Positions 1,207-45,351 of a stretch of DNA of 64,000 nt are shown piece by piece (within the stretch, counting starts at the first letter, position 1; each line of letters opens with the position of its first letter). The stretch comes from Microgenomates group bacterium (GTDB lineage: Bacteria; Patescibacteriota; Microgenomatia; Daviesbacterales; UBA10151), in NCBI GenBank assembly GCA_041659805.1, contig JBAZXP010000001.1, positions 966,841-1,030,840 of the forward strand, written 5' to 3'. The translations under genes and the position numbers were made by a program. The notes under the pieces were generated by a model. The model saw only the letters and a list, made by a program, of their open reading frames with translations, did not search any database and had not been told where the DNA came from.

Positions 1207-2895
1207 ATGTCAGATTATCGATATTTAAAGGACGAATCTTGGTATATTGACCACTATGATCTCCTCACAATAAAGGAGTGCCTTAAAGTCATTAAAATGT
1301 TCCAAGATGTCTATGACAAATGCTTAACCAGCAAAGAGCTTCAGGGTATGTCTAAAAACGATAAATACATCGATACCACCAAACTGATGTATTGGCAGTT
1401 GTGGTTTGTCCAGGCTCAAGAATATAAAAACAAGAAACAGACAATTGAGAAATGGATGGAAGATGATCGTATAAAGCAGGAAAAATACGACAATGCCGTT
1501 GTGCTTCAAGATGTCCACTGTCCTTCCTGTAAGACCATAATGCAAGTGAGAGAATCCAGACACTTGGAAGACTACATGGATCAGCCAATTCGAGTGATGT
1601 TTCTTGTTCGCTGTCCAAAATGTAAAAAGCAAGAATGGGTTTATGAGAATGGTGAGATAAGGGTGTCAAAACCCGATCTTTGTCCTAAATGCGATAAAGA
1701 GATTGATGTAAAACATGCCAAGAAAGGTCAAGTTATCACCTGGACCCGCAGGTGCAAACATTGTGGGTATACCGAAACTGAGGCAGATGACTTCGAAAAG
1801 AGTCATCGGGAATACCTACAAAAAGAACAGGCAGAAATAGAGTTGTTGGAAAAATATCGCACTGCGTTTTGTTTAACGAACGAACAAGGAGAAAAGTTTT
1901 TATTTGAGCTTGAAGCAATGGAATTTGCCAATCAAATACGCAATGAAGCAAGGCAAAAGTATGATAACAGTGCCTATCAGCAAGTAAGCACATTGAAAAA
2001 ACTAACCATTGTTGAACTTGAAAAGCTCCTTACAGGGGTATTTGAAAAGGAAAACTACATGAAACTGTCCTTTGCTCCTCCTGAAATAAATCAGTTCATT
2101 TTTGCTCCATTTACATTACAGGATGCCGATACCACACGAAGAGAAAATATAAGCACCAGTTTGCTTGAAAAGCTAATAAAAAGCACTTTAGAAAAGACTA
2201 ACTGGCGACTCGTTGATGGTATAAGTTACCGACTCGGTTTTCTATCTGGCAGATTGAAAGGATACGAACGAGAGGAAGATTTGATGAAGCTTTATGAAAA
2301 GCAGAAAGAACCACAAAAACCAATAGATCCAGAAAAGAGAATGAAATATAGTATCAGCAACTGGGTTAGGTTTGCAGAAATGAGGGGCGAGCAGGAAGGG
2401 ATTGAGGCTGCTCGAAAGCGAAGACTTGAAAAAGAGCCAGAAGGCTTTCCTTTAGATAAAGAAGATCATTATAACTGTAGTATTTGTTACGGAGGCCACT
2501 ATGGAGATGAAATGTGGTGGAATTTAGATGGGATTCGCTGTGCTGACTGTTGGCGTAATATCAAGGAAGGCGTTATTCCACCGCTTAAAAAGCACCTTTT
2601 TGATAACGATGTTGAGTGGATTTCAAACTCACAACTAAAATCAGACTACAATGTTCCCACTCCTCTTGTAAGAAAGCTTCGTGAAGAAGGTTTACTTCAC
2701 GCAAGGGAATTAAAGAGCAAGAATGGCGGAACCTACTATACGGTTTACCTTGTTAGTGAAAACCAAGAATTTCTCAAAAAGTATCCTAAAAACAAGAAGG
2801 AAGTGAATAAATCGATACTAACACTAGATATTTCTGGTCATGTGGCGCAAATAGGCGAAGTTCCTGACGAAGAAAAGTCTAATCCAACTGCCTAA
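1207..2895 (+). CDS. hypothetical zinc-ribbon-rich protein
   Basis: 562 aa with at least five CxxC pairs (HCPSCK..CPKCKK, CPKCDK..CKHCGY, CSICYGG..CADCW) and a coiled-coil middle. Confidence 0.45.
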   Translation: MSDYRYLKDESWYIDHYDLLTIKECLKVIKMFQDVYDKCLTSKELQGMSKNDKYIDTTKLMYWQLWFVQAQEYKNKKQTIEKWMEDDRIKQEKYDNAVVLQDVHCPSCKTIMQVRESRHLEDYMDQPIRVMFLVRCPKCKKQEWVYENGEIRVSKPDLCPKCDKEIDVKHAKKGQVITWTRRCKHCGYTETEADDFEKSHREYLQKEQAEIELLEKYRTAFCLTNEQGEKFLFELEAMEFANQIRNEARQKYDNSAYQQVSTLKKLTIVELEKLLTGVFEKENYMKLSFAPPEINQFIFAPFTLQDADTTRRENISTSLLEKLIKSTLEKTNWRLVDGISYRLGFLSGRLKGYEREEDLMKLYEKQKEPQKPIDPEKRMKYSISNWVRFAEMRGEQEGIEAARKRRLEKEPEGFPLDKEDHYNCSICYGGHYGDEMWWNLDGIRCADCWRNIKEGVIPPLKKHLFDNDVEWISNSQLKSDYNVPTPLVRKLREEGLLHARELKSKNGGTYYTVYLVSENQEFLKKYPKNKKEVNKSILTLDISGHVAQIGEVPDEEKSNPTA

Positions 2896-3734: not shown

Positions 3735-4196
3735 ATGATTAAGCATATTTGGTCAGTATTATGTCAAAAATCAAGTGTGGATCAATTATCTAATAATATT
3801 AGCTTATTTGATGTATTTGAGGCCTTAGAAGTTGATATTAAATCAGCCTCCAATGTTAAACCTACAACAGATTCTAGTTATAATGTTCCTGTCCAATATC
3901 AAGTAGTTACGTTGCTTTCCAAAGATACAGCGGATTCTAAAGATACTCAATATAGTATTCGCATCACGTTGGTAAATCCGGAAGAGAAAGAAAAGATCCT
4001 AGTTGATCAAAACCTAACTTTCCTAGCTAATAAAAAAAGGATGAGAAGTATTAACCAGATTCAAGGCCTTCCAGTAAATAAGAGCGGTGACTATCATTTT
4101 ATTGTCGAGCTAAAACATGAAGAAAAATTCCAAAAGGTTGCCGATCTTCCATTAGAAGTTAAATTAAATATCAATACATCTCCAAAACAAGCTTAA
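3735..4196 (+). CDS. hypothetical protein
   Basis: 153-aa ORF starting immediately after the previous stop; no motif. Confidence 0.35.
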   Translation: MIKHIWSVLCQKSSVDQLSNNISLFDVFEALEVDIKSASNVKPTTDSSYNVPVQYQVVTLLSKDTADSKDTQYSIRITLVNPEEKEKILVDQNLTFLANKKRMRSINQIQGLPVNKSGDYHFIVELKHEEKFQKVADLPLEVKLNINTSPKQA

Positions 4197-4209
4197 TTTT
4201 TTGGAAGAC

Positions 4210-4887
4210 TTAATCCAGTTTTGTTAAAAACTTTTCAATTTCTTTCATCACAATATTAGTTTCTTTTTCTGATTTCCGGAAATTATGCCCCATTTGAGGC
4301 TGTCTAATTACATAAGGATTATTTGCATTAGCCACTACCCTTTCAGTTTCACTGGGTGGAACATCTTTATCATCAAGCGCTATAAAAATCATAAGTGGTT
4401 TGTGAATATCTTTTACTTCTTCTACCGCCGAATATTGCATTCCATCAATGGCAAAAGTATCTGGGATGTCAAAAGATCTCAGTTTTTCAGGGCTTTCTGG
4501 CAAGTCTCTCTCTGAATGTCTCAATTTCTTACCCTGCCAATTTAAAGCAACACCTACCCTATCAGCTGCAGGACAAAGTGCCACTATCTTATTTACTTCT
4601 TTATTTCTATTTCCTACAATTATTGCAACATATGCACCTAAGCTATGACCAATTAATACAATTTCCTCGGGCTTTTTAATTGCATAAGATTCAACCAAAT
4701 CTGAAACTTGTTTAATATAATTTGTTATTGTGTAATTTTTAACATCTCCTGTCTTCCAAAGGGAACAAGGATCTATTCTTTCTGCTGTATACCCCAGCTC
4801 TTCAAGCCATTTTGCAAAAATCTTCATATGGAGATAATCAGGTGAATCTAAATAACCAGGTAATAATAAAGCTACTTTAAAAGACAT
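4210..4887 (-). CDS. alpha/beta-fold serine hydrolase (esterase/lipase-like)
   Basis: GHSLGA nucleophile-elbow motif (GxSxG) in a 225-aa protein. Confidence 0.6.
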   Translation of the reverse strand: MSFKVALLLPGYLDSPDYLHMKIFAKWLEELGYTAERIDPCSLWKTGDVKNYTITNYIKQVSDLVESYAIKKPEEIVLIGHSLGAYVAIIVGNRNKEVNKIVALCPAADRVGVALNWQGKKLRHSERDLPESPEKLRSFDIPDTFAIDGMQYSAVEEVKDIHKPLMIFIALDDKDVPPSETERVVANANNPYVIRQPQMGHNFRKSEKETNIVMKEIEKFLTKLD

Positions 4888-4898
4888 GAGGAAATTAT

Positions 4899-4924
4899 AG
4901 GATTTTTGGGGAATTTAATCCAGC
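4899..4924 (+). repeat. copy A of a ~26-bp intergenic repeat AGGATTTT(T)GGGGAATTTAATCCAGC with internal GGATT/AATCC inverted repeat
   Basis: The 18-bp core GGGAATTTAATCCAGC(A/G)C recurs at 4909-4926, 5093-5110 and 5757-5774, all in the same orientation. Confidence 0.6.
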
Positions 4925-4950
4925 GCATTCCTTTTTTAATTTAATCAATC

Positions 4951-5076
4951 CAATATCTAACCCCCGAGGTTAGATATTTATTTACTTTAATTTCTATTTC
5001 TATCCACCTCTCAGGTGGACAATGCGTACACCTTCCCGTCAAAGGATTTTTACCACACTTTTTCTAAAAAGTGTGA
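4951..5076 (+). other. three consecutive perfect hairpins: AATATCTAA-N9-TTAGATATT (4951-4978, followed by a T-rich run), TCCACCT-ctc-AGGTGGA (5011-5029), CACACTTTTT-ct-AAAAAGTGTG (5055-5076)
   Basis: Read directly from the sequence; the first hairpin plus a following U-rich tract looks like a plus-strand intrinsic terminator. Confidence 0.4.
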
Positions 5077-5083
5077 AATAAAA

Positions 5084-5108
5084 AGGATTTTGGGGAATTT
5101 AATCCAGC
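5084..5108 (+). repeat. copy B of the ~26-bp repeat
   Basis: AGGATTTTGGGGAATTTAATCCAGC; its 5' half AAAGGATTTT is also duplicated at 5041-5050, flanking the third hairpin. Confidence 0.6.
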
Positions 5109-5166
5109 ACTCTTAATCTTGTTAAATACTAGAATTATCTTTTTTGGTTTGCAATATTTTTCTCAA

Positions 5167-5703
5167 CTAACGTTCATCTAACATAGGCTGAAGAGGATTA
5201 ATAATTTTAAAAGCTTCACTTCTTGGAGCATCCCTAAAAATATTTACTGCGTATACACGCCTCATTATTCGGTGAAAATCTTTTGCACCATGTGTATTTC
5301 CTTCAAACATATAATAACGATGTGCTTCTACTAACCCCTTCCAGCCTTTACCTTCAACTTCAGCGTGGGCAAGTTCTGCAGCCAACTGGTATGTTTTAAT
5401 GGGATTCTTTTTAGCCTCACCCCGGATTTCAGACAGTATCTCCCAAGCCCTATTATCTCTATCCATAGCAGCCTCCCACGATATTTGCATCGGTGTCCTA
5501 TTATGCAATATTTGAACCCGGTCATAACGGGGACCATCTTTAGTGAAAATAATATGGCTATCAGAATAAGGACAAATCGTCCTTGCTTCTCGCCAGTATT
5601 TTCCCAACCCCTCCTTCTCCATGGTAAAGGGGGTCTTTAAAACCAGGCCCTCATCAGAGAGCACATATCCTATTTGTTTTGAATTAAGAGCTATTTTTTC
5701 CAT
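5167..5703 (-). CDS. hypothetical protein
   Basis: 178-aa ORF bracketed by repeat copies B and C; no confident family assignment. Confidence 0.4.
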   Translation of the reverse strand: MEKIALNSKQIGYVLSDEGLVLKTPFTMEKEGLGKYWREARTICPYSDSHIIFTKDGPRYDRVQILHNRTPMQISWEAAMDRDNRAWEILSEIRGEAKKNPIKTYQLAAELAHAEVEGKGWKGLVEAHRYYMFEGNTHGAKDFHRIMRRVYAVNIFRDAPRSEAFKIINPLQPMLDER

Positions 5704-5754
5704 TTGCGGAATTATATCTTATTTGAGGCTAAAATTCTATAACTAGTACTTTTT

Positions 5755-5774
5755 TAGGGAATTTAATCCAGCAC
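5755..5774 (+). repeat. copy C (3' core only) of the ~26-bp repeat
   Basis: TAGGGAATTTAATCCAGCAC lies in the divergent promoter region between the genes starting at 5703 (-) and 5838 (+). Confidence 0.55.
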
Positions 5775-5837
5775 AATTAATGTTACAAAAAATAGGACTT
5801 GAAAAGTAAAAAACTTATGTTATGCTAGCTATGTTTT

Positions 5838-6476
5838 ATGAATAAGAAACTTCCATTAATTATTGGTGTCATAGTTTTGCTTGGAGGATTGGCAGCATTC
5901 ATGCTTCTGTCTAAGGGTAAAAACGTTACTCCTCAATCCCAAAGCACACAAACAATACCAACAGAACAAGAACAGGAAACACCAAAACCAACTGTTCAAC
6001 CAAAATCATTAAAAGACTTGCTTGCTTTAGGCAAAACCCAAAGTTGTACTTTTACAGATGGCAGCAATAGCAAAACAAGCATTTTCTTTGCTAATAACAA
6101 AATGAGGGGTGATTTTGAGGCTACATCGGAAAAAAGTGTAATGAAAACCCATATTATAGTTGATGGTCAAACTTCATATATGTGGATAGATGGTCAAACA
6201 ATGGGCTACAAAATGTCTGTTGATAAAGCAACTGCAGAACAAACAAACACACAACAAAACCAAATTGATTTGAACAAACAAGCTGATTACAACTGCAAAG
6301 ACTGGACTGTCGATTCTTCAGTTTTCAACCTTCCTACAGGAATTAATTTTACAGACCTTAGTAAACTCATTGCTCCTACTGGTGCTGATGGTGGAAACTC
6401 TGCTCAGTGTGCAGCCTGTGATACTCTGCAGGGTGAGGCAAAAACACAGTGCAAAACCGCTTTAAAGTGTAGCTAA
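5838..6476 (+). CDS. secreted/membrane-anchored Cys-rich hypothetical protein
   Basis: N-terminal hydrophobic signal/anchor (LPLIIGVIVLLGGLAAFMLL) and a Cys-rich C-terminus (CAACDTLQGEAKTQCKTALKC); a TTGAAA-N17-TATGCT promoter-like element lies upstream at about 5799-5827. Confidence 0.4.
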   Translation: MNKKLPLIIGVIVLLGGLAAFMLLSKGKNVTPQSQSTQTIPTEQEQETPKPTVQPKSLKDLLALGKTQSCTFTDGSNSKTSIFFANNKMRGDFEATSEKSVMKTHIIVDGQTSYMWIDGQTMGYKMSVDKATAEQTNTQQNQIDLNKQADYNCKDWTVDSSVFNLPTGINFTDLSKLIAPTGADGGNSAQCAACDTLQGEAKTQCKTALKCS

Positions 6477-32190: not shown

Positions 32191-33429
32191 TCAAAGAACT
32201 TCAGAAATTCTAGAATCAATAAAATACGGATCATCTCCCCTCATATCTTTTTCTATAACGTCACACAACCAAGGTGCCAAATCTACCCATTCGGTTTTAC
32301 CATAAGGGTTTAAATCTCCTAAAGGTTGTCTGGAATTTGTGGCAAAAATATTAGATATAAAAGGATTGTTTATTCTTTGAGCCCACTTTAAACCTACTAA
32401 TTCTAAGTGTGCGGCTAAAACAATATACGCCTCAGCTCCCTTTTTATACTGCAAATCCTCTGCAATTTCATCGACGGTTGATACGCCAGTAATAACATCA
32501 TCAAAACCAACGCCAATCTTATTCTTTAATATAACTCCTTCGTTTTCCAGGTGATCTCCATTAATAGTCACGCTACTTTCAGTTTTACGGATCTTACTAT
32601 ATCCAAAACGGGGAATGCATAAATAATCACTGATTTTACCCGCAGCATGGTTTCTTCCATCATCAGGCCCGATAATCCGAGTGTTATCCACTGTTAACTT
32701 TACTCTAGATCCATCACAAATTCGTACGCCTTTGTTTTTGACTTCGTCTGCCATTACTTTCCATAAAGATAATGGCAAAAGAGGCATCCCTCTCTCTGCT
32801 GCGAACGCTTGAGTTGCACTTGAATGAGGCTCAACCACAATCATCCTGTCAACAACAGTACTAAGCATTTTAAGCATGGCTTTGTTGTTAATTGCCTGAT
32901 GTTCATATTTTCCTTCCTTGTTAACGTTTTTATCCTGTCTGGCGCCTGCCAAAAATGATACCACAAGAGTAAAGCACTCTACTCCCAATTCATCCTTACA
33001 CCTATCAGCAGTTGCAATAATACTAAATAGGTCCCTCTCATCAACAATTGATGCTATACCGTATATAGATTTAACTCCTGATTCAAGTCCAATGCTTTCA
33101 TTTTTCGGTTCATGATTATCAAATTCAAGAGAATGGTTAACCCGCACTATCGGGAGAGAAGATAACTTGCTCAACAAAGGTGATTGAAAAAGTGAATTAG
33201 TCACATCCTGAATTTTTTCAGGGTTTCGCTGGAAAATTATTATTTGGTGATTAAAAGGATCATCCAAACTACCGAGTAATTGATTTCTTTTTGAAGTGCC
33301 TTCTACCCACATATCATGAGCACTTTGACGTTCTAAACGGAGAGCATGCCTGTATATCCGTCCATGAATACTATCTTCTGGCAACGTTTCTTCTACAAAT
33401 ACTGGTTTAGTTTCTAAGTTTAGTGACAC
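32191..33429 (-). CDS. Prs-like phosphoribosyl pyrophosphokinase paralogue with ~60-aa N-terminal extension
   Basis: LAGARQDK (vs YARQDR), MIVVEPHSS (vs ALDLHA), IIGPDDG (vs VSPDHGG), GFDDVITGVSTV PRPP-binding loop (vs DDIIDTAGT). Confidence 0.5.
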   Translation of the reverse strand: MSLNLETKPVFVEETLPEDSIHGRIYRHALRLERQSAHDMWVEGTSKRNQLLGSLDDPFNHQIIIFQRNPEKIQDVTNSLFQSPLLSKLSSLPIVRVNHSLEFDNHEPKNESIGLESGVKSIYGIASIVDERDLFSIIATADRCKDELGVECFTLVVSFLAGARQDKNVNKEGKYEHQAINNKAMLKMLSTVVDRMIVVEPHSSATQAFAAERGMPLLPLSLWKVMADEVKNKGVRICDGSRVKLTVDNTRIIGPDDGRNHAAGKISDYLCIPRFGYSKIRKTESSVTINGDHLENEGVILKNKIGVGFDDVITGVSTVDEIAEDLQYKKGAEAYIVLAAHLELVGLKWAQRINNPFISNIFATNSRQPLGDLNPYGKTEWVDLAPWLCDVIEKDMRGDDPYFIDSRISEVL

Positions 33430-33462
33430 TTAAAAAATCTTTCTGGGCAGAATAAATTTTTG

Positions 33463-33954
33463 CTATCTTGTCACATTTATTGTAACACTTAATTCTGCTG
33501 ATGGCGCTGCTACTGTCACTCTATTATTCGTAGCACTTTTTACAACAGTATAACCGGTATCGTAAGTTGTGCAATCAGTATATGAACCTGTTAACGGATC
33601 AACCGGCAACTGTGCAATATAAGTCGGGACCAAAGAAGAACATATATCTGCTCCACCTGTATTTTTAATTGTAGCTGCTGTAGTTCCTATCCCTACAGGT
33701 AAGGCTCCTCTGTTGTCTGCAGCATATTGATTAATTGCATTTAAAATTGAATTAACGTTGCTTTGTCTTTGAGTATTATTGGATTGAGAAAATTGCCTGG
33801 AAGGATTAATTGCAACCAAAGTAATTGTTAGGAGAACTGCTAAAATTCCAATAACAACTAAAAGTTCAATAAGAGTAAAACCTGTGGAGATTAATTTGAA
33901 GTAAGGCAGTTTCATATACTTATCGTAAGCGAGTTTTAATAGACCGTCAAGCAT
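33463..33954 (-). CDS. type IV pilin / pseudopilin
   Basis: Prepilin leader and N-terminal helix STGFTLIELLVVIGILAVLL (G|FTLIEL cleavage/methylation motif). Confidence 0.6.
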   Translation of the reverse strand: MLDGLLKLAYDKYMKLPYFKLISTGFTLIELLVVIGILAVLLTITLVAINPSRQFSQSNNTQRQSNVNSILNAINQYAADNRGALPVGIGTTAATIKNTGGADICSSLVPTYIAQLPVDPLTGSYTDCTTYDTGYTVVKSATNNRVTVAAPSAELSVTINVTR

Positions 33955-33958
33955 TAAT

Positions 33959-34504
33959 TTAGCTTCTTAAAAAGTTAGCTGTAGTTATTATTTTACTATC
34001 ATTAACTTTTTGCCAAATATCTTTTTGGTTTAAAGGTGTGTCCTGTGTAACATTACCTAAAACTGAAGCTGGTACTACTGTTTCAACAGTAAAACCAATC
34101 TTTTCTAATATTCTTTTCACAGGCAAATATAGATTTTTAGTAATAGCCACAACAGCAAGGTCTTTTTCATTAGCAATCTTTTTTATTTCTAGTTGGGTTG
34201 GGTCAAAAGGAATTTTTTCCAAAAAATTTTGTATTTGTCGCTGTTCTTCTGCCGGATTATGGGGAAAGACTTTCTGAAAAACCATATCACTACTTAAAAC
34301 TAGAGTAATTTTTTGACCTCCCCGATTACCTTGAGGAAAAATTCCAAAAATAAATTTTTCAAAGGCATCCACATCCATTATCTCTAAATGCCGAACTGCT
34401 CCAAAAGGATATGTAACATCAGCAGTTTTTTCACTTCCCTTATATACTTCCAAAGAATTTCTTTTTAAATATATAATAAGCTTAGGTTTATTAAAAAATA
34501 ACAT
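33959..34504 (-). CDS. hypothetical pilus-operon protein (paralogue of the N-terminal domain of the 35018..36037 product)
   Basis: Shares ...FL(E/N)xIPF...KI...VE(T/A)VVP... with the N-terminal 180 aa of the 339-aa protein two genes downstream. Confidence 0.3.
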   Translation of the reverse strand: MLFFNKPKLIIYLKRNSLEVYKGSEKTADVTYPFGAVRHLEIMDVDAFEKFIFGIFPQGNRGGQKITLVLSSDMVFQKVFPHNPAEEQRQIQNFLEKIPFDPTQLEIKKIANEKDLAVVAITKNLYLPVKRILEKIGFTVETVVPASVLGNVTQDTPLNQKDIWQKVNDSKIITTANFLRS

Positions 34505-34528
34505 TCTAGATTTATTGTAGCAGGAAAT

Positions 34529-34978
34529 TTAACGGCTGACAGTAACTGTTGCACTCTCAGCCGAAGGTGCACTCACAGTAACCCTATTATTAGTCGCACT
34601 TTTGGCAATTGTATAACCTGTATTATAGTTTGTGCAATCAGTATATGAGCCAGACGATGGATCAGCAGGCAAAGCTGCAACAAATTCTGTAACAAGAAGC
34701 GAGCAAATATCCAATCCTCCGGAGCTTCTAACGATTTGTGCGGAAGTAGTTATGCCTGCAGGGAGAGAACCATATTTTACTAGATACTGACCTACTGCAT
34801 TTAATATTACATTCACATCACTGTGTCTCTGGGTATTTCTAGCAGCAGCAAGTTGTGCACCCGGATTAATGGCAATTAAAACCATTGCTAAAAGAAATGT
34901 AAGCACTCCTGTTACAATAAGCAATTCTACAAGGGTGAAACCGAAATCTGAAAACTTAAATTTGAATCTGGGCAGCAT
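34529..34978 (-). CDS. type IV pilin / pseudopilin
   Basis: FGFTLVELLIVTGVLTFLLA N-terminus. Confidence 0.6.
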   Translation of the reverse strand: MLPRFKFKFSDFGFTLVELLIVTGVLTFLLAMVLIAINPGAQLAAARNTQRHSDVNVILNAVGQYLVKYGSLPAGITTSAQIVRSSGGLDICSLLVTEFVAALPADPSSGSYTDCTNYNTGYTIAKSATNNRVTVSAPSAESATVTVSR

Positions 34979-35017
34979 ATATTTATGATCTGATATTTGT
35001 AATAGTTTGTCAACGAA

Positions 35018-36037
35018 CTACTTATCCGTTCCTGTAGTTATTATTACTTCAAAATTTGCGGGGACATATTTTATTGTAGCTACATCTGAAAAATCAGTTT
35101 TAAGCATTTTGGTAATCTCGTCCTGCACATCAGATGAAACTTTATCAGAAAAAGAAACTGTTGTTTGTGCACTTGCAGTCCCCTCATAGTTTCCTGTTTC
35201 AATTATAGAATATCCTAACTTTAGAAGCTGATTTCTTATTTCAGAAGCCTGACCTGCAACCCCTGAACCATTTAGAATCTCAATTGTTAATTTATCTTTT
35301 GAGATACTGATCTCGCCTGACGAACTGGATTGTTGCATGGGGCTAGGACTAATATTAAATGTCAGATTAGGTGAAGAATTTGAACTATTTTTAGATTGCT
35401 CAGCTGACTTTAAGAAAAATTCTGCTAAAAAAATTAAAACAACCAACAAAAAACCTACAAATATAGCTATAAAATATTTTTTATTATTTCTCTTGGCACC
35501 ATACCCGGAAGACACTATTAAAAAATTATCTGGTTCTGAGGAATTAATTTTTTCAACAAGCGGAGGAATAACTTTCCAGCTTACCGCTCCTTTATCAATT
35601 TCCCCAAGTTTTTTAAATGGCACCACAGCTTCAACCTGCAATTTCATTAAAACACATGTATCTAGCAAAAAAGAATAAAGGTCTTTATTCGTACCTATCA
35701 ATTTTTCAGTCTCTGCTTTTGGAATTTTTACAAGAGCAATTTTTTTATTTTCAAAAGGTATGGTGTTTAAAAACTCCATAATTTCTTTTTCTTCTTCCTC
35801 TGGTGACTTAAAAGAAATATCTTTTTCATAAATAATCTCCTGAGACAATAAAATAACTGCTGATTCATCACGAAGATTATTTTCGTTAAAGAAATTTGTT
35901 ACCAGTCCTGTGTATTTTCTGCTATCTAAAATCTCCTGATTTTGTATAGTATCAGCTGGAAATTCCAACTTTTTGCTTTTATCAGAAACTATCAATTCTA
36001 TTGATTTATTATTCACTAAAATTGCTATTTTGCTCAT
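35018..36037 (-). CDS. bitopic pilus-assembly-associated protein: cytoplasmic N-domain, TM, periplasmic LytR_C-like domain
   Basis: TM helix FIAIFVGFLLVVLIFLAEFF at ~190. The C-terminal LTIEILNGSGVAGQASEIRNQLLKLGYSIIETGN resembles the LytR/CpsA/Psr C-terminal domain consensus (V-x-V-L-N-G-T-G-x-x-G-L-A). Confidence 0.4.
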   Translation of the reverse strand: MSKIAILVNNKSIELIVSDKSKKLEFPADTIQNQEILDSRKYTGLVTNFFNENNLRDESAVILLSQEIIYEKDISFKSPEEEEKEIMEFLNTIPFENKKIALVKIPKAETEKLIGTNKDLYSFLLDTCVLMKLQVEAVVPFKKLGEIDKGAVSWKVIPPLVEKINSSEPDNFLIVSSGYGAKRNNKKYFIAIFVGFLLVVLIFLAEFFLKSAEQSKNSSNSSPNLTFNISPSPMQQSSSSGEISISKDKLTIEILNGSGVAGQASEIRNQLLKLGYSIIETGNYEGTASAQTTVSFSDKVSSDVQDEITKMLKTDFSDVATIKYVPANFEVIITTGTDK

Positions 36038-36039
36038 AA

Positions 36040-36447
36040 TTAATTAATCTCGTTCCAACTGGATACTGTAAAAACATGCCCGGAAAAAGTACCAACAACC
36101 TGAATTTTCCGCCTAAAATTACCCATTACACCTTCTGAAACAATGGTTTTTGTTGTTGTACCGCTAACTGTAATTGTAACAGTTCCAGACCCTACACTAA
36201 AAGTCTCACCTGTGTAGTTGGGGTTTCGGAGCAGCCTTAAAACTGCATTGTCAGCACCTGTTTGGGCAAGTAAATAAGAATTTTCACCAATCTCAACTTT
36301 ACTGGTAGCTTCTGAATTAATTATTGTCACAGCCACAGCCCCCGTAACCACGGTTATGGCAATTACCATAAAAACTAACAAAGTAATCAAAGTCTGACCC
36401 TTTTCCTTGACTCTTAATTCTGTATTTTTAAATCTTAAATCTTTCAT
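36040..36447 (-). CDS. pseudopilin-like protein (atypical leader)
   Basis: KGQTLITLLVFMVIAITVV N-terminal hydrophobic helix but no Glu at +5. Confidence 0.4.
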   Translation of the reverse strand: MKDLRFKNTELRVKEKGQTLITLLVFMVIAITVVTGAVAVTIINSEATSKVEIGENSYLLAQTGADNAVLRLLRNPNYTGETFSVGSGTVTITVSGTTTKTIVSEGVMGNFRRKIQVVGTFSGHVFTVSSWNEIN

Positions 36448-36932
36448 TATCTTCTCCCCACAGTTGTTGTAAAAGTTCTAACTTCGCTCCCTGCAACTCT
36501 GGTAGTTGCACTGGTTAAAGTGTATGTTACTTTTATTGTATCTTTACCTCCCGTATTTCCCAATCTTTGAAATGTCAGACCTGAAACCTGAGATTCTGAA
36601 CTATTTAGATTATTTGTTCCAAGGTTATTTACTAACTGTAAATTTGTGCCATTCAGAGAATACGTATAGGTATTTCCCCCTACAACCATTGTTAAAGTAC
36701 CGCCTGAGGCACCAAGAGTTGCCGGTTGGGATATCGATGTCGCCAACGCGACATCGTAAGCTAACCTGGCTGTAATAAACCTACCATCAGTCTGCACAGA
36801 TGAAGTAGCTGCTGATTCTGCTTTAACATCCAAAATAGCCACCAAAACATCAGTTAAAACCAGCAGGAATCCTGCCATCAAACCCATATAAATTAACATT
36901 TCTACTAATGTGAAGCCTTTTTGTTTTTTCAT
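36447..36932 (-). CDS. type IV pilin / pseudopilin
   Basis: MKKQKGFTLVEMLIYMGL N-terminus. Confidence 0.6.
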   Translation of the reverse strand: MKKQKGFTLVEMLIYMGLMAGFLLVLTDVLVAILDVKAESAATSSVQTDGRFITARLAYDVALATSISQPATLGASGGTLTMVVGGNTYTYSLNGTNLQLVNNLGTNNLNSSESQVSGLTFQRLGNTGGKDTIKVTYTLTSATTRVAGSEVRTFTTTVGRR

Positions 36933-38767
36933 GGACTATAATTTACTGATAAATCTGTGACATACGGAATGTCAGTGTTTGTACTGGTAAAGTATATTTT
37001 ATACCTTAAGTACCTGCCTGAAACATTTACCAGATTAATTGCTCCATATCCACCTGTAAAATATGTGCCAGAAGTTCCATCTGGACCCACGAAACTCCAT
37101 GTAGCATTATCAGAGTTTGTGGCTATTTGTAGTCTGGTAGTTGTATTTGCTGTATTGACTTCTGTCCAATTTATATTATTAAAACCGGCATTTGCGCCTG
37201 CATCCATAGTCGCAGATATAAAATCACCTGAATTGGGAAATGCAGACCCGTTATAACCAATTTGTATTTTATCTAATCGCACAAATTGAGCACCGTTACT
37301 AATTAAAAATGCCCGGACTTTTATCTGACCTGAAGCAGCAGAAAAAGCAGGTATAAACTGATTCACAGTAGCAGCTGAATTATAGTGTGTCGGTAAAGTC
37401 GCTGTTTGCCAACCTCCGCTCCAATATTTCCATGTTACTCCATTATCATCAGAAAGTTGGTACATAATTGACCCGCCATTTGTTATTTCTGTCGCTGTAA
37501 ATGAACTCCAGGAAAATACATTACTTGGAACAAATGAAGCTATGGGGTAAATTGTCGGGCTGGTGGTATCATAACTTACAATATTGCCTGTCCAGGAAAG
37601 TAAAGCATTATCATACCCAATTGTAAAAGGTCCACCGTTTAATACCGTATCATAATCAACGAAGGCTCCGATTTTTAAATAATATGTACCGGCAGTTACC
37701 ATTTGGGGGCTGACATCAACCGTCACTGTACCTGACCAGGGCATAACTGAAATAATATTGCCTGAATCCCAAACCTGAGTAGTAGGAACACCTGTGGCAA
37801 TAGTATCCAACCACGCATAAAGATGAAGAGAAGTTACAGTTGGATTAAAAACTAAAACCTGCCAATTAAAAGTTAGTGTGCCTGTTACATTCGGAACTGT
37901 TGTGGTAGTAGGCTGACGATAATAGAGCCCACCCGCTTTATTGTGATTTTTGTTTGTAACTTCTCTTAACCAAGCACCGGGAATTCCACCTGTAGCTATT
38001 CTTGCACCTGCCTGACCTACACCATCACCATAATTAACACGGACCCAAGGATTAGCGGTAGTATCAAAACCAGGATTTGTAGTAGCACCTGAAACAGGAG
38101 TATTAATTGGTTTTAGTTCTGCAAAACCATTTAAAACCTCAATTTTATTTGAATCATAAGTATAGCTAACAGGAGATGTGTAATCATCAACAAAACTGTA
38201 TGAACTGGATCCAACATTGGAAAGCCTAACCGATCCTCCACCAGTTGTATCACTTTCAGTATTATTAAATGTTCCCCCGTTAAAATCTGCTTGGGTGGTA
38301 TGAACTAAAGTTGTGTTCCCCAAATACCTTTGTAAATATTCTGTGGTGGTAACTGAACCTGGGTTGGGAGTTGTCCAGGAAACAGTATAAACAGCCAACT
38401 TAGTGGAAGGGTCTATTACTCCACCGCTCAATACAATATTTCCACTTGAATCTCTTTGAACTGAAGATATAGCAACTTGCCTGGTAAAATTACTGTTGAT
38501 TGTTTCTGAACCTGTTGCTAAACTCCAGGAAGTTGCACCTTGTACAGGATGATAGGTATTATTAGAAGCAATATTACTCCATCCTGCTTCCCTAACAGAT
38601 CTGACAGCTTCTTCCTCCTCTTTTAAATAAGTTAAAGCCTGCAACCGTTGCCCCTCTTGCGCCTTTCCTTCGCGGGATGCGATTAAGCCGCTCAAAATTC
38701 CCGGAATAATTACGGCAGCCAAAGCTATTGCGATAAGTAATTCAATTAAAGATTGTCCTTTTTGCAT
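36929..38767 (-). CDS. large pilin-like protein with N-terminal pilin helix and ~580-aa Thr/Ser/Gly-rich beta-rich domain (candidate tip adhesin / PilY1-like function)
   Basis: MQKGQSLIELLIAIALAAVII prepilin-type N-terminus followed by a large low-complexity beta-rich region. Confidence 0.5.
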   Translation of the reverse strand: MQKGQSLIELLIAIALAAVIIPGILSGLIASREGKAQEGQRLQALTYLKEEEEAVRSVREAGWSNIASNNTYHPVQGATSWSLATGSETINSNFTRQVAISSVQRDSSGNIVLSGGVIDPSTKLAVYTVSWTTPNPGSVTTTEYLQRYLGNTTLVHTTQADFNGGTFNNTESDTTGGGSVRLSNVGSSSYSFVDDYTSPVSYTYDSNKIEVLNGFAELKPINTPVSGATTNPGFDTTANPWVRVNYGDGVGQAGARIATGGIPGAWLREVTNKNHNKAGGLYYRQPTTTTVPNVTGTLTFNWQVLVFNPTVTSLHLYAWLDTIATGVPTTQVWDSGNIISVMPWSGTVTVDVSPQMVTAGTYYLKIGAFVDYDTVLNGGPFTIGYDNALLSWTGNIVSYDTTSPTIYPIASFVPSNVFSWSSFTATEITNGGSIMYQLSDDNGVTWKYWSGGWQTATLPTHYNSAATVNQFIPAFSAASGQIKVRAFLISNGAQFVRLDKIQIGYNGSAFPNSGDFISATMDAGANAGFNNINWTEVNTANTTTRLQIATNSDNATWSFVGPDGTSGTYFTGGYGAINLVNVSGRYLRYKIYFTSTNTDIPYVTDLSVNYSP

Positions 38768-39240
38768 TAATTCACAGATATAACACCTAAATTATTTACG
38801 GTAATTGTTTTTGAATTTCCCCCATTATCAGAAATGGTTATGGTGTTTGAACCATTCACAAAACTTACAACTTCACCACTTCTCCTTTCGAATACAACCA
38901 GATGCCCTGAAAAAGTATCTACTAAATTTTCCGAGGTATCCAGATTTATAATAAAATTACTGGTGTCTCCTGAATTATAAGTAGTACCTCTAAAAATAGT
39001 GTAACTATTGGAGGTAAAAAAAATTCCATAACTCTGAGCAGTTGTTTGTCCCTCACTATCCCCGATCATTGATTTTAACTGAGCTTCTTTTAAATCAGCA
39101 GCCAACGTGTTGATGGAAGCTTCAACCGATGCTTTTGTTTGAGGACGGATTAAATTAATAGTAATAAACGAGGCTAAAATTGCAAACAAACCCATTACCA
39201 AAAGTATCTCTACCAAGGTAAACCCGAATGATTTTTTCAT
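38767..39240 (-). CDS. type IV pilin / pseudopilin
   Basis: MKKSFGFTLVEILLVMGLFAIL N-terminus. Confidence 0.6.
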   Translation of the reverse strand: MKKSFGFTLVEILLVMGLFAILASFITINLIRPQTKASVEASINTLAADLKEAQLKSMIGDSEGQTTAQSYGIFFTSNSYTIFRGTTYNSGDTSNFIINLDTSENLVDTFSGHLVVFERRSGEVVSFVNGSNTITISDNGGNSKTITVNNLGVISVN

Positions 39241-39243
39241 AAC

Positions 39244-40290
39244 TTACCTTCCCTTTATCTGACCGATGAGCTGATAAATAGGAGACACAATTGAAAGCAT
39301 TAAGCCTCCTACAAAAATTCCTATTATTACCAGTAATATTGGTTCAAGTAAAGTTGTAAAATTCTTTAGCGCATTTGCCACCCTTGTTTCAAAATAATCA
39401 GATAATTCCTGCATTGATTTTTCCAAAGTTCCGCTTTTTTCTCCTGCCTCAGTTATCCTCATCATTGTTTCTGGAATCAGGTGTTTTTTATCTTCTGCAA
39501 ATCCGTCTGACAATTTCTTACCTGCATCAACCGCAACCTTACAATTTTTAATTAAAGTCTCAACGTCACGTCTATTAACCACAAACCGGCAAAGCTCTAA
39601 GGATTCTGTAATCGGAATTCCTGCACCCAGAAGGAGAGACAGGCTGTGTGTAAAACGGGCAAAATCAATTTCTAAGGCTAGGCCTGAAAGAAGTGGGAAT
39701 GAATAGAAAAAATTAATTAATTCCTTTCTTCTTGTGTTATAAAGATAAACCGCCAATATAATAACTAGAATAGCTGCTCCTGCAACATAGATTGTGTATT
39801 GTAGTAACAGGTTGGAAAAGAAAATCAAAACTTGAGTAGGCAGGGGCAGAGAAACATTTAACCTGCTAAACACTACTGCAATTCTGGGAATAACATATCC
39901 TAAAACCAAAAGTAACACACCCAAAAAGACCACCACTACTAAACCGGGGTAAGCCAACGCAGCCTTTACTTTATCTGAAAATTCCATTTCTTTTTTAAAG
40001 CTAATTACCAAATCCTTTAAGGTGGTGTCCAAAGTTCCTGATTCTTCAGCAGCTTTAATAAGACTGACGGTAATTGGATCAAAAGCGTCAGGAGAATTCT
40101 CGAAAGATTCTGCAATTGTTTTACCTTCTTTTAAATCTTCTCTTAATTTTTCCAGGATTTTTTTAGGGTTTCCTTTTGCTTCCTTTAAAGCTGAATCAAC
40201 AGCATCCAAAATAGGAATGCCTGCTCCCAACATTGTTCCTAAATTACTTATAAGATTAAGCCTTTCTTGGCTGGACAGATTTAGACTCAT
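39244..40290 (-). CDS. pilC: type IV pilus / T2SS platform protein (GspF/PilC family)
   Basis: 348-aa polytopic membrane protein with duplicated GspF-like cytoplasmic segments, adjacent to the PilB ATPase. Confidence 0.7.
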   Translation of the reverse strand: MSLNLSSQERLNLISNLGTMLGAGIPILDAVDSALKEAKGNPKKILEKLREDLKEGKTIAESFENSPDAFDPITVSLIKAAEESGTLDTTLKDLVISFKKEMEFSDKVKAALAYPGLVVVVFLGVLLLVLGYVIPRIAVVFSRLNVSLPLPTQVLIFFSNLLLQYTIYVAGAAILVIILAVYLYNTRRKELINFFYSFPLLSGLALEIDFARFTHSLSLLLGAGIPITESLELCRFVVNRRDVETLIKNCKVAVDAGKKLSDGFAEDKKHLIPETMMRITEAGEKSGTLEKSMQELSDYFETRVANALKNFTTLLEPILLVIIGIFVGGLMLSIVSPIYQLIGQIKGR

Positions 40291-40298
40291 ATAAAAAT

Positions 40299-41984
40299 TT
40301 ATTCCTTTGTTGCTCTAACAACCTCCTCTATGCTGGTAACTCCTGTGATAGCTTTCTCAATCCCGTCATCCATCATGGTAGTCATTCCTTCACTCTCAGC
40401 TTTTTTTGAAATTACATCAGAATCAGCTTTTGCCACAATTAATTCCTTAACGCTATCTGTCACCTCTAATACTTCAAAAATTCCTACCCGGCCTACATAA
40501 CCGGTATTATGACAGACAGGACAGCCTTTACTCATATAAAGTCTTACTTCTGTCTTTTTATCAAAATGTTTAGCGAACATTACATCACCAATCTCTTTTT
40601 GAAGTTTTAGAGCATCAGCTGAAACTGAGTACCTACATTTCTCACAAAGCCTTCTGACTAGTCTTTGGGCAATAATAACATTTACGGTGCTGGATACTAA
40701 AAACGGTTCAACTCCCATTTCTATAAAACGGGGCAGGGAGGTTGCAGCATCATTGGTATGTAACGTCGACAAAACCAAATGTCCGGTCATAGCAGAATTT
40801 ATAGCAATCCCAGCTGTCTCATCATCACGGATTTCTCCGACGAACATGATATCAGGATCCTGTCTCATAATAGACTTCAAACCTTCTGCAAAAGTCAAGT
40901 TAGTCTTGGGATTTACCTGAATTTGGTTAATTCCCTCAATTTCATATTCCACAGGATCTTCAATTGTGGCTATATTTTTTTCTCTACTATTAATAATTTT
41001 TAAAACTGCATAAATCGTTGTGGTTTTACCACAACCAGTAGGACCGGTTGATAAAACCATTCCAAATGGCTTCATAAAACCATTTTTTACTTTTGCTACA
41101 TCTTTATCATTCATACCCAAATCCAACAGCCCAAATTGTCTTGACTTCGAGGACAAAAGACGCATAACAGTCTTCTCCCCATTCACTGTCGGCACTATTG
41201 AAACGCGGATATCCAACGTCTCATCCGGCATTTTTTTCTGCATTTTGCCGTCTTGAGCACTTAAATGTTCATCAATTCTCAGTTTACTTAATACTTTGAT
41301 ACGGGAAACGATTTTATCATGCAAAGTTAAAGGCAAATTTAAAACGTCGTGCAAAACACCATCCACCCTAAACCGGACAACACTTCCTTCTTCTTTAGGC
41401 TCAATATGTACGTCCGAAGCGCGCTGTGAATAAGCGTGATCAATAAGAGTATCAATAATCTTGGCAATTGGTGTTTCCGCTGCCTGGGAGGTAGTGGCAA
41501 TTTTTGCTTCACTGATGCTTTCTGCAATCATTGAATCAAAATCTTTTTGGAGGCTTTTTCTATACAACTCAAGAGCTTTATCTAAATCACGGTCTGTTGC
41601 AAAATATGGGTGAACAGACACCCCTGCTTTTTGAGAAACAGTTTGAATGATATCTTCATTCGAAGGATCAGCCATAGCCAGCTTTAGACCTGTTTTATCA
41701 GTTTCAAAAGCGATAATCCTTTGTTTCAAAGCCATATTCTCAGGAATAATTTGTAGAATTTCCGGGGGGATCGCCCTTTCAGATAGCTTCACAAAAGGCA
41801 CTTTAATCATATCTGCAATTACTTTTCCGAGATTTTCATCACTAATTAAATCCCTATCAACCAAAAGTTTTACTAAGGGAATTTTTTTATTTAAAGAGGC
41901 ATTGCGCACCTCATCTAATTGCTTCTGATCAATTACACCCAACTCTGCAAGCATTTTATACAAGGAATCATCAGAATAAAGCAT
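40299..41984 (-). CDS. pilB: type IV pilus assembly ATPase (GspE/PilB family)
   Basis: Walker A GPTGCGKTTT, Asp box, Walker B/His box, C-terminal tetracysteine (CEKC...CPVC). Confidence 0.85.
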   Translation of the reverse strand: MLYSDDSLYKMLAELGVIDQKQLDEVRNASLNKKIPLVKLLVDRDLISDENLGKVIADMIKVPFVKLSERAIPPEILQIIPENMALKQRIIAFETDKTGLKLAMADPSNEDIIQTVSQKAGVSVHPYFATDRDLDKALELYRKSLQKDFDSMIAESISEAKIATTSQAAETPIAKIIDTLIDHAYSQRASDVHIEPKEEGSVVRFRVDGVLHDVLNLPLTLHDKIVSRIKVLSKLRIDEHLSAQDGKMQKKMPDETLDIRVSIVPTVNGEKTVMRLLSSKSRQFGLLDLGMNDKDVAKVKNGFMKPFGMVLSTGPTGCGKTTTIYAVLKIINSREKNIATIEDPVEYEIEGINQIQVNPKTNLTFAEGLKSIMRQDPDIMFVGEIRDDETAGIAINSAMTGHLVLSTLHTNDAATSLPRFIEMGVEPFLVSSTVNVIIAQRLVRRLCEKCRYSVSADALKLQKEIGDVMFAKHFDKKTEVRLYMSKGCPVCHNTGYVGRVGIFEVLEVTDSVKELIVAKADSDVISKKAESEGMTTMMDDGIEKAITGVTSIEEVVRATKE

Positions 41985-42030
41985 ACTAAAATAGTGCTAG
42001 CAGATTACGGGTAAAATGAAAAGAATTTAA

Positions 42031-42408
42031 CTAAAGGTGCTTAAATATATTTTTTATCTTTTCCATCATTTCTACAAGAGAAATATCTGATTTAACAAAA
42101 TAGCCCAATACCCCCATTTTATTCGCTTTTTTTACATCTTCCTCTTGTCCGAGATTTGATAGAACAATCACTTTTAAGTCTTTAAGATTTGCATCAGCTC
42201 TTAACTCTTCTAATACCTCAAAACCATCCTTAATGGGCATGACTAAATCTAAAAGCAGTAAGTCCGGTTTTTTCTGTCTCACGGCAACCAAAGCTGTTTC
42301 ACCATTCCCAACTATTAAAGTTTCATAGCCTCCTTTTAGCAGCTTAATTTTAAAAAGGTTGGCATAATATTTATCATCCTCTGCCACAATAATATATTTT
42401 TTATCCAT
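42031..42408 (-). CDS. stand-alone response-regulator receiver (CheY-like)
   Basis: IIVAEDD...DLLLLDLVMPIKDGFEVL receiver signature; 125 aa. Confidence 0.7.
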   Translation of the reverse strand: MDKKYIIVAEDDKYYANLFKIKLLKGGYETLIVGNGETALVAVRQKKPDLLLLDLVMPIKDGFEVLEELRADANLKDLKVIVLSNLGQEEDVKKANKMGVLGYFVKSDISLVEMMEKIKNIFKHL

Positions 42409-42410
42409 TT

Positions 42411-44780: not shown

Positions 44781-45351
44781 TAGACTCCTTAAGCTTTTTA
44801 TTTTCTTGTTTTAACTCAGCCATTTTTACTTCACGGTTGACCATAAAACTATTCATTTTCTCTGTATCTTTCATTTGGGAATGAATTTCTTTAGTCCTTT
44901 CAGTCACTTTCTCCTCAAGATTTTGAGTATATTGTTTGAGTTTATTCTCCAATTCTTTTTTTTCTGTAATATCTTCAATTACCAACACAATAAGCTGTAA
45001 TGAGTCTATCTGCCTGGCATTAAGCAACATTGTTTTCTGTCCGATCTCCGGAAAATTATGTTCAACCTCATAATCATTCACAAGTTTCTGTTCGGGTAAA
45101 ATTTCTTCCAATAATTTTCTAAGTCTCGGAATATCCCATTGTTTATTTCCTAAATCATAGAGAAATTTATTTACCGTTTCTTCAATTGTTACTTTAAAAG
45201 TCTTATAGAAAAAGGGGGTTGCTTCAAGAACTTTAAGATCAGAATCCAAGATCAAAAACGATTCTCTGGCTATCTCTACTACAGGCACAATATAATGAAG
45301 TGCTAATTTTCTTTCTTCCTCAAGAGTATTGTTTTTATCCACAACTATCAC
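44773..45351 (-). CDS. PAS-fragment / coiled-coil hypothetical protein
   Basis: 192 aa; 8-bp overlap with the downstream HK; C-terminal heptad-rich region. Confidence 0.35.
   Translation of the reverse strand: MIVVDKNNTLEEERKLALHYIVPVVEIARESFLILDSDLKVLEATPFFYKTFKVTIEETVNKFLYDLGNKQWDIPRLRKLLEEILPEQKLVNDYEVEHNFPEIGQKTMLLNARQIDSLQLIVLVIEDITEKKELENKLKQYTQNLEEKVTERTKEIHSQMKDTEKMNSFMVNREVKMAELKQENKKLKESNE

Follow-up and report, generated by a model that had tools for sequence, protein, structure and literature searches.

What is the role of a short motif that recurs, always in one orientation, around a small gene without relatives and a set of hairpins in the genome of a bacterium of the candidate phyla radiation (CPR, or Patescibacteria)? 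The question is raised by a 64,000-nt stretch of DNA from a Microgenomates group bacterium (assembly GCA_041659805.1, contig JBAZXP010000001.1, positions 966,841 to 1,030,840), hereafter the window, in which we term the motif M. CPR bacteria have tiny genomes, and the acquisition and turnover of their accessory genes are poorly understood. We find it very probable that M is the repeat at the junctions of a cassette array, and that this array is shared between Microgenomates genomes and shuffled among them. On balance, we also favour the more specific view that the cassettes are self-contained and that M is most likely the site at which they recombine.

A 21-nt junction repeat and the cassettes it divides

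Both genes of the region lie on the minus strand, and the array is accordingly read on that strand, to which "sense" refers below. In this sense M is a block of 21 nt, CTGGATTAAATTCCCCAAAAG. The window contains three strong copies (M_A, M_B and M_C) and a decayed one (M_0), all in a single orientation and spanning 1.6 kb (Table 1). The initial annotation had noticed a thrice-repeated, co-oriented motif, and this observation holds: the exact 16-mer GGGAATTTAATCCAGC is found on the plus strand at 4909, 5093 and 5757, and a 25-mer at 4900 and 5084 only, for a chance expectation of 0. With up to three mismatches allowed, the 16-mer has five matches in the window, a number reached in 0 of 100 shuffles. 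Furthermore, a covariance model that used sequence only and was derived from 29 family members returned exactly three matches in the window, all on one strand (E 1e-9, 1e-8 and 3e-7), and neither this model nor a pattern search found further copies there. An assembly artefact can be discounted: in two further samples, contigs of one ENA assembly and two Logan assemblies match the locus with 100% identity.

When the family is aligned on M, conservation begins abruptly at the first C and ends after 21 nt. Information content is 1.1-2.3 bits per position inside the block and mostly at or below 0.5 bit in the flanks, with the exception of a weak TAAAxTT box at +24 to +31, that is 3-4 nt downstream. 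All 21 positions are conserved about equally, and M is an asymmetric, non-palindromic block without a dyad and without RYYYAAC or GTTRRRY boxes. A GGATT-N11-AATCC palindrome had been described for the repeat; it is confined to copies A and B and does not characterise the family, its left arm lying outside the conserved block.

The array is bounded by a convergent DUF6941 gene (3735-4196) and a divergent gene for a 212-aa protein (5838-6476). In sense order it consists of M_C, ORF178, M_B, module H, M_A, the hydrolase gene and M_0, so that M divides three cassettes: the gene of the 178-aa open reading frame (ORF) that we call ORF178, the ORF-less module H, and a gene for an alpha/beta-hydrolase. 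The decayed copy M_0 overlaps the end of the hydrolase gene, to which its CTG GAT TAA provides the stop codon, and is 2 nt away from the stop codon of the convergent DUF6941 gene; a counterpart is found in the same place, after the homologous hydrolase gene, in one of the related loci (L008; L numbers denote the loci compared). The proposal that ORF178 is bracketed by direct copies as part of a mobile mini-element stands in part. The bracketing is real and cassettes do occur in different arrays, but the copies are the junctions of a multi-cassette array.

ORF178 found only itself among 5.8 billion proteins, and an exhaustive HMMER search of 1.84 billion representative proteins gave no homologue at E<=0.001. 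Neither did it match any family in Pfam, NCBIfam, PADLOC or PHROGs, and its AlphaFold model has a predicted local distance difference test score (pLDDT) of 46.6. The ORF is nevertheless 100% identical in contigs of three samples (ERZ27249449, SRR18595301 and SRR6484324). Its TATAAT box is part of a promoter-like block, TAGAATTTTAG...AAGATATAAT, that it shares with cassettes in L023 and L015. The TATAAT reported next to copy A is also there, and its distance from the hydrolase ATG would make the hydrolase mRNA leaderless or near-leaderless; the same layout of TATAAT and ATG recurs in several other cassettes. ARAGORN found no tRNA or tmRNA attachment (att) site in the window, and blastn of 4880-5790 against phage and plasmid records gave no match.

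Table 1. Features of the M array in the window, listed in sense order (coordinates are window positions)
Feature	Coordinates	Strand	Description
M_C	5751..5771	-	Junction repeat CTGGATTAAATTCCCTAAAAA; covariance-model E 2.8e-7; array start
TATAAT, candidate -10 box	5711..5716	-	7 nt before the ORF178 ATG
Cassette 1, ORF178 gene	5167..5703	-	178 aa, ORFan
M_B	5087..5107	-	Junction repeat CTGGATTAAATTCCCCAAAAT; covariance-model E 1.1e-8
Cassette 2, module H	4925..5083	-	ORF-less, 160 nt, three hairpins
Hairpin 1	5054..5075		10 pairs, CACACTTTTT/AAAAAGTGTG; present in L013 with one compensatory pair
Hairpin 2	5003..5019		Palindrome TCCACC-N3-GGTGGA, family-wide
Hairpin 3	4952..4978	+	11 pairs, then T-rich tail; scores as plus-strand terminator
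M_A	4903..4923	-	Junction repeat CTGGATTAAATTCCCCAAAAA; covariance-model E 1.3e-9
TATAAT, candidate -10 box	4894..4899	-	6 nt before the hydrolase ATG; identical in L008
Cassette 3, alpha/beta-hydrolase gene	4210..4887	-	Esterase/lipase-like, 225 aa; Pfam Peptidase_S9/Hydrolase_4/Abhydrolase_6
M_0	4199..4218	-	Decayed junction repeat, window letters TTTTGGAAGACTTAATCCAG, sense CTGGATTAAGTCTTCCAAAA, 16/20 identical; array end

Related arrays and the breakpoints between them

For the comparison with other genomes, we scanned one genome per GTDB species with a 21-nt pattern and obtained four matches, two in metagenome-assembled genomes (MAGs) of Daviesbacteria and two gammaproteobacterial. Each Daviesbacteria locus consists of four co-oriented M copies between small ORFs. 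The matches in the gammaproteobacterial MAGs (L007 30-57 and L010 5085-5113) lie inside a homologous protein-coding gene and were judged coincidental, since the stretch is coding and reads WIKFPKIPG by eye; motif and flank match there over 28 nt with one mismatch, which is longer than the search pattern demanded. A scan of metagenomes for M yielded 19 stretches, and arrays of 3-9 co-oriented copies were found in other contigs of Daviesbacteria and Microgenomates. In L023, a 192-kb chromosomal contig holds nine copies within 5.2 kb, next to ychF and rpsF-ssb-rpsR; L019 has five copies, L008 and L009 have four each, and L015 has three. Among 2.9 million viral contigs we found two single chance matches to M and no arrays. 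The concern that the motif might be absent elsewhere, or might belong to a common intergenic family resembling repetitive extragenic palindromic (REP) sequences, can thus be set aside: M arrays are present in other Microgenomates genomes, and the motif is found in one 1.6-kb locus of the window and in one stretch per Daviesbacteria genome of the GTDB scan.

Furthermore, the junction sequence varies with the lineage. In L032-34 five copies of the variant repeat CTGGTAATTTCTCCCCAAAAGTCCTAAAATTTGC make up an array that adjoins a DUF6941 orthologue, and in L046 and L047 the variant AAATTGCAGGGr-CTrGTAAACTTTGTyAGGAAC is present in seven co-oriented copies between seven successive gene units. The latter array (L046 7100-15800, and L047) contains Peptidase_S51, hydrolase, NUDIX, PNPOx, 2'-5' RNA ligase-like and other small genes. 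Across the arrays the cargo comprises small hydrolases, NYN, DCD, Schlafen/AlbA_2, Fic-MazE, HicAB and HigA-like genes as well as genes without homologue. The hydrolase homologue in L048 is without a repeat, and the DUF6941 loci L035, L036, L039-L042 and L045 have no adjoining array, although L035 carries degenerate M copies about 9 kb from DUF6941. These array-free loci have 69-83% protein identity and are therefore too diverged to define an insertion point at the nucleotide level.

The same cassette can be followed between arrays. The hydrolase cassette of the window (4210-4923) corresponds to L008 2926-3639 with 88% DNA identity and has different neighbours there, and the two sequences cease to align at the first base of M at one end and inside the following M at the other. 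Similarity likewise ends at M between L008 5402-5932 and L009 2578-3109 and between L015 and L028, and the end points of indels or replacements between related genomes fall in M. A 71% identical hydrolase homologue in L046 and L047 is bracketed by the different junction repeat of these loci. Partial or tandem M copies resembling recombination scars are found at L023 6137-6181 and at 4931-4955 in the window, where module H carries a decayed extra M. Collectively, these data show how the array is built, that it recurs in related genomes, that cassettes have been exchanged with breakpoints at M, and that the junction sequence differs by lineage.

Some metagenome contigs also end at the repeat. 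The L013 contig (1103-1122) ends exactly at the first base of M, which could reflect population heterogeneity in the upstream cassette. Contigs ending either at the first M base or inside the hairpins of H include L013, L003 and L006 (window 5004-5032), the start of L019 and the start of L015; contig ends inside palindromes are expected assembly behaviour.

We then computed the spacing between ORFs and M over 32 M sites. From the stop of the upstream sense ORF to M the median distance is 6.5 nt, with 10 nt or less in 13 of 22 cases and the stop inside M in 6, while the median from M to the next ORF start is 40 nt. Two copies have no downstream gene (M_0 and L009 3252), each facing the 3' end of a convergent gene, and others precede cassettes with inverted genes (Fic/antitoxin in L009 and L032; L023 2692-3291). 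This indicates that M is not simply a promoter. At the 5' junction of the hydrolase cassette, positions 13-16 differ between the window and L008 and the next 27 nt are identical, which hints at a crossover between CCCC and AAAA. Such a crossover would leave M mostly at the 3' end of each cassette, as is the case with attC.

Site of recombination or regulatory element

Beyond the exchange itself, we infer its mechanism, its enzyme, the promoter activity of the boxes and the roles of H. A cassette unit would consist of a promoter-like -10 box just before the ATG, one ORF (none in H) and M within a few bases of the stop. M would then be the recombination site for the insertion, loss and exchange of cassettes, and a circularised cassette would carry one M. 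Exchange could be brought about by a sequence-specific recombinase encoded elsewhere in the genome, or by homologous exchange between the 21-bp repeats. We favour the former, since the 21-nt block is sharply bounded, variable between lineages and tightly coupled to the upstream stop codon.

Several points weigh against M being a recombination site. Searching 414 kb (the window and the loci) by phmmer with XerD and gamma-delta resolvase gave nothing at E<=10, in a two-query screen, which is less sensitive than a Pfam scan of all 65 window ORFs would be, and Pfam-annotated genes flanking five arrays include no recombinase or integrase. M has no obvious dyad symmetry of the kind typical of simple tyrosine-recombinase sites. 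The crossover position hinted at by the 5' junction is not confirmed at the 3' junctions, where the M copies that follow the hydrolase gene in the window and in L008 share only 11 of 16 positions. The evidence for recombination at M is comparative, drawn from related genomes. As most loci were found by motif search, the array statistics are subject to ascertainment. Finally, about half of the copies have a TAAAAT box at a fixed distance of 3-4 nt after M, and M may therefore also, or instead, act in transcription.

A zinc-ribbon ORF of 562 aa in the window (1207-2895) was considered as the recombinase and rejected, having no homology to the 536-aa ORF that flanks the L032 array; it has no informative family match in Pfam, NCBIfam, PADLOC or PHROGs. 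Within this ORF, at about 1576-1708, contigs from two samples end or begin (ENA k141_102226 and k141_1494326, both from the same sample, and JGI Ga0172379_10007076), which suggests a structural polymorphism or a strain-variable boundary.

The transcriptional possibility leads to the main rival, which we regard as rather unlikely. Here M is primarily regulatory, as a portable promoter, an UP-like element or an operator of accessory genes, and shuffling is a by-product of homologous recombination, as with the promoter-early stem-loop elements (PeSL) of T4-type phages. PeSL combine a consensus sigma-70 promoter with stem-loop motifs, and exchange between them swaps, deletes or inserts single genes in hyperplastic regions (PMC2839356, PMC4122927). 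Homologous exchange at M would account for the same comparative pattern, and M arrays resemble PeSL in that short conserved intergenic motifs flank homologue-less genes, with exchange between the motifs, so that in both systems such genes are tied to modular exchange (PMC2839356, PMC4122927). In addition, terminator-like hairpins accompany M, and where a TAAAAT or TATAAT box follows M by 3-4 nt it can be the sole promoter-like element, 6-10 nt before the ATG (the window hydrolase, L008 5956, L015 890 and L019 4231).

Of the promoter-like boxes in the interval after M, some are full TTGACA-17-TAnAAT elements, and most have a -10 box 6-10 nt from the ATG, which would imply leaderless mRNAs. The distance from M to the box varies from overlapping to at least 13 nt; neighbouring cassettes have canonical TTGACA-17-TAnAAT sequences 2-13 nt further downstream at variable distance, whereas TGGATT, which occupies the -35 position in M, matches poorly. 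The 21 positions of M are near-equally conserved, unlike those of a bipartite promoter. M is also present where there is nothing to transcribe (M_0 and L009 3252) and before inverted cassettes, it is coupled to the upstream stop codon and not to the downstream start, and its sequence depends on the lineage. The differences from PeSL follow the same lines: a terminator stem-loop is joined to the motif in PeSL, whereas most M junctions are without one and hairpins are found only in H; PeSL are strong consensus sigma-70 promoters and owe their conservation to this, whereas M lacks TTGACA, has a variable distance to the box and lies close to the upstream stop; and PeSL reside in phage genomes, whereas M arrays belong to bacterial chromosomes, the viral contigs searched having yielded none.

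Recurrent promoter-like blocks were also observed. The block ATTGCACTGAGC-N6-CGAAGTG-TAAAAT-TTGC (-35 TTGCAC, 17-nt spacer, -10 TAAAAT) precedes unrelated cassettes at four loci (L017 2740-2775, L035 11500-11560, L037 3695-3730 and L023 1035-1075), and a second block, TAGAATTTTAA-N6-GCAAGATATAAT, is common to window 5711-5742, L023 and L015. Both blocks may be portable promoters.

Module H and the comparison with known systems

The three hairpins described initially for the spacer are present, all of them within H (Table 1). The 279-nt spacer folds better than 200 of 200 shuffles on each strand (z -3.4 and -3.5). H carries a TAAAAT-like box and AGGTGT (5028-5052), and homologues of it are found between M copies in L009 (two), L013, L016, L028 and L037, with partial ones at the ends of L015 and L019; we take H to be a recurrent non-coding cassette of its own. 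On the minus strand, the conserved core reads TAAAATCCTTAGGTGT, 9 nt, TCCACC-loop-GGTGGA. The stem of hairpin 2 is invariant and only its loop varies, and there is consequently no covariation to back an RNA structure. No compensatory change was found in the stems conserved among spacer homologues, and hairpins 1 and 3 vary across lineages in sequence and position. The H modules of L028 and L037 have added direct GGTGGAA repeats, suggesting a protein-binding motif, and the palindrome TCCACC...GGTGGA probably binds a protein. One H-type core (L037 560-691) belongs to no array and lies upstream of an acetyltransferase gene; after it come two TCCACCCCTAGGGTGGA palindromes in tandem and a series of GGTGGAAAA direct repeats, an iteron-like arrangement.

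Hairpin 3 with its T-rich tail looks like a terminator for transcription antisense to the array rather than the body of a small RNA. In L009, H directly follows the DUF6941 stop, and its third hairpin, on the DUF6941 strand, is followed by a T-run. The H of L037 also adjoins DUF6941, and a clear terminator was not seen there. The plus-strand hairpin and T-run of H probably terminate transcription from the DUF6941 operon. One reading would be that H carries the old terminator of this operon and that the hydrolase cassette was inserted between the two later.

The annotation had instead proposed that the spacer encodes a plus-strand small RNA of about 90 nt (4899-4995). We find no support for this transcript, and we hold it improbable that the spacer (4899-5108) encodes a small RNA at all, be it this one or an RNA of the minus strand with its start downstream of the TAAAAT-like box in H, with the repeats incidental. 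The strong structure on both strands (z about -3.4), the plus-strand hairpin with its T-run and the presence of H in at least six other loci with conserved TAAAAT box, AGGTGT and hairpin speak for such an RNA. Against it, no Rfam family matches at gathering score in the window, and between 4100 and 5900 there are only six weak, unrelated matches at E<=10 (Rfam 15; mostly eukaryotic small nucleolar or long non-coding RNAs, all far below the gathering score). There is no plus-strand promoter above chance, and the conserved TAAAAT box, AGGTGT and TCCACC...GGTGGA read in the minus-strand direction. In the conserved hairpin the stem sequence is constant and only the loop changes, hairpins 1 and 3 differ between lineages, and the GGTGGAA repeats of L028 and L037 resemble protein-binding sites. 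A small RNA would also leave the M array unexplained.

We hold it very improbable that M acts either as a dif-like Xer site of the replication terminus, with the array formed by integrative mobile elements exploiting Xer (IMEX), or as a genome-wide repeat of the REP or miniature inverted-repeat transposable element (MITE) type. The dif site is 28-31 bp long, with two inverted 11-bp arms, and lies at the replication terminus. Genes do converge at about 4200, where the GC skew changes sign within the window, and the M copies, like those of IMEX arrays, are direct repeats with a common orientation. However, the skew is negative again 10 kb further left, so that the sign change merely tracks local gene orientation; M lacks the 11-6-11 dyad of dif; and arrays elsewhere lie beside ychF and rpsF-ssb-rpsR or 9 kb from DUF6941, so that their position is not constant, unlike that of a terminus. 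REP sequences and bacterial interspersed mosaic elements (BIME) are palindromic and dispersed in many intergenic copies, and MITEs have terminal inverted repeats and target duplications, whereas M is non-palindromic, has no copy in the remaining 62 kb of the window and forms one stretch per genome in the GTDB scan. Cis-mobilizable elements (CIMEs), IMEX arrays at dif and tandem islands at tRNA genes are integrase-less elements accreted at one att site. M arrays share with them direct repeats of about 20 nt between successive modules, a single chromosomal locus and the lack of a recombinase of their own, but tandem accretion produces multi-kb islands at tRNA genes or dif, whereas M modules are single genes of 0.2-1.1 kb in arrays of at least nine units.

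The closest likeness in organisation is to integrons. Integron cassettes are co-oriented, mostly promoterless and single-ORF, and attC sites are imperfectly palindromic, about 55-140 nt long, carry RYYYAAC...GTTRRRY boxes and fold in single-stranded form. In a complete integron, intI with attI and the Pc promoter adjoins the array, which is not needed for clusters of attC sites lacking integron-integrases (CALIN). M arrays resemble sedentary chromosomal integrons and CALINs in their co-oriented, mostly single-ORF cassettes, among which ORF-less ones occur. They also share a repeat at the ORF 3' end that sometimes provides the stop codon, lineage-specific repeat families that are near-uniform within an array, as in the attC pattern, a cargo of homologue-less genes, toxin-antitoxin pairs and small enzymes, and the occurrence of the same cassette in different arrays. 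M arrays differ from integrons in that no intI, attI or common Pc was found, in their CPR host, and in cassettes with their own promoter-like -10 box, which would be placed for leaderless translation. That M is part of attC in an ordinary CALIN is hardly credible, for all its co-oriented cassettes of toxin-antitoxin, hydrolase and homologue-less genes, lineage-specific junction repeats and ORFs that run into the repeat: M is a 21-nt non-palindromic block instead of a folded attC of 55-140 nt with R''/R' boxes (RYYYAAC/GTTRRRY), 100-nt regions at the junctions show no excess of structure over shuffled sequences (mean z -0.5), the cassettes bear promoter-like boxes, and the phmmer screen of 414 kb found no tyrosine recombinase.

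Taking the recombination-site reading of M further, we tentatively propose an integron-independent system of cassette capture in Microgenomates, which we consider possible though less likely than not. It would combine a lineage-specific 21-bp core site with a trans-encoded, unrecognised enzyme and collect self-expressing (leaderless-promoter) cassettes with accessory, toxin-antitoxin or defence functions at a chromosomal hotspot, with H, through its TCCACC...GGTGGA palindrome and GGTGGAA iterons, as an accessory protein-binding platform or a regulator.

Two regions outside the array are recorded here. The 10 kb to the left of the window (L043) encodes an N6_N4 methyltransferase, a 954-aa AAA_23 protein, an HTH_17 (excisionase-like) protein and a 582-aa Peptidase_S26 protein, and looks like an island. 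On the minus strand at about 33400-44800 of the window, several proteins have type IV pilin-like N-termini (e.g. FTLVEMLI), together with ORFs that by eye are secretion-ATPase-like (Walker-A), multi-pass membrane, response-regulator-like and sensor-kinase-like, which would fit a pilus or competence cluster.

To our knowledge, no integron-type platform is known for CPR bacteria, and a full-text search found no account of such arrays in them within the literature covered. On the conservative reading of homologous exchange at junction motifs, PeSL-like modular shuffling would extend from phage to bacterial chromosomes. If instead the M array is a working cassette platform, it would be a second and independently constructed way of doing what integrons do. 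It would also provide a defined 21-bp site with which to seek a new recombinase, and ready access to compact, self-expressed genes without known function, among them the ORF178 gene.

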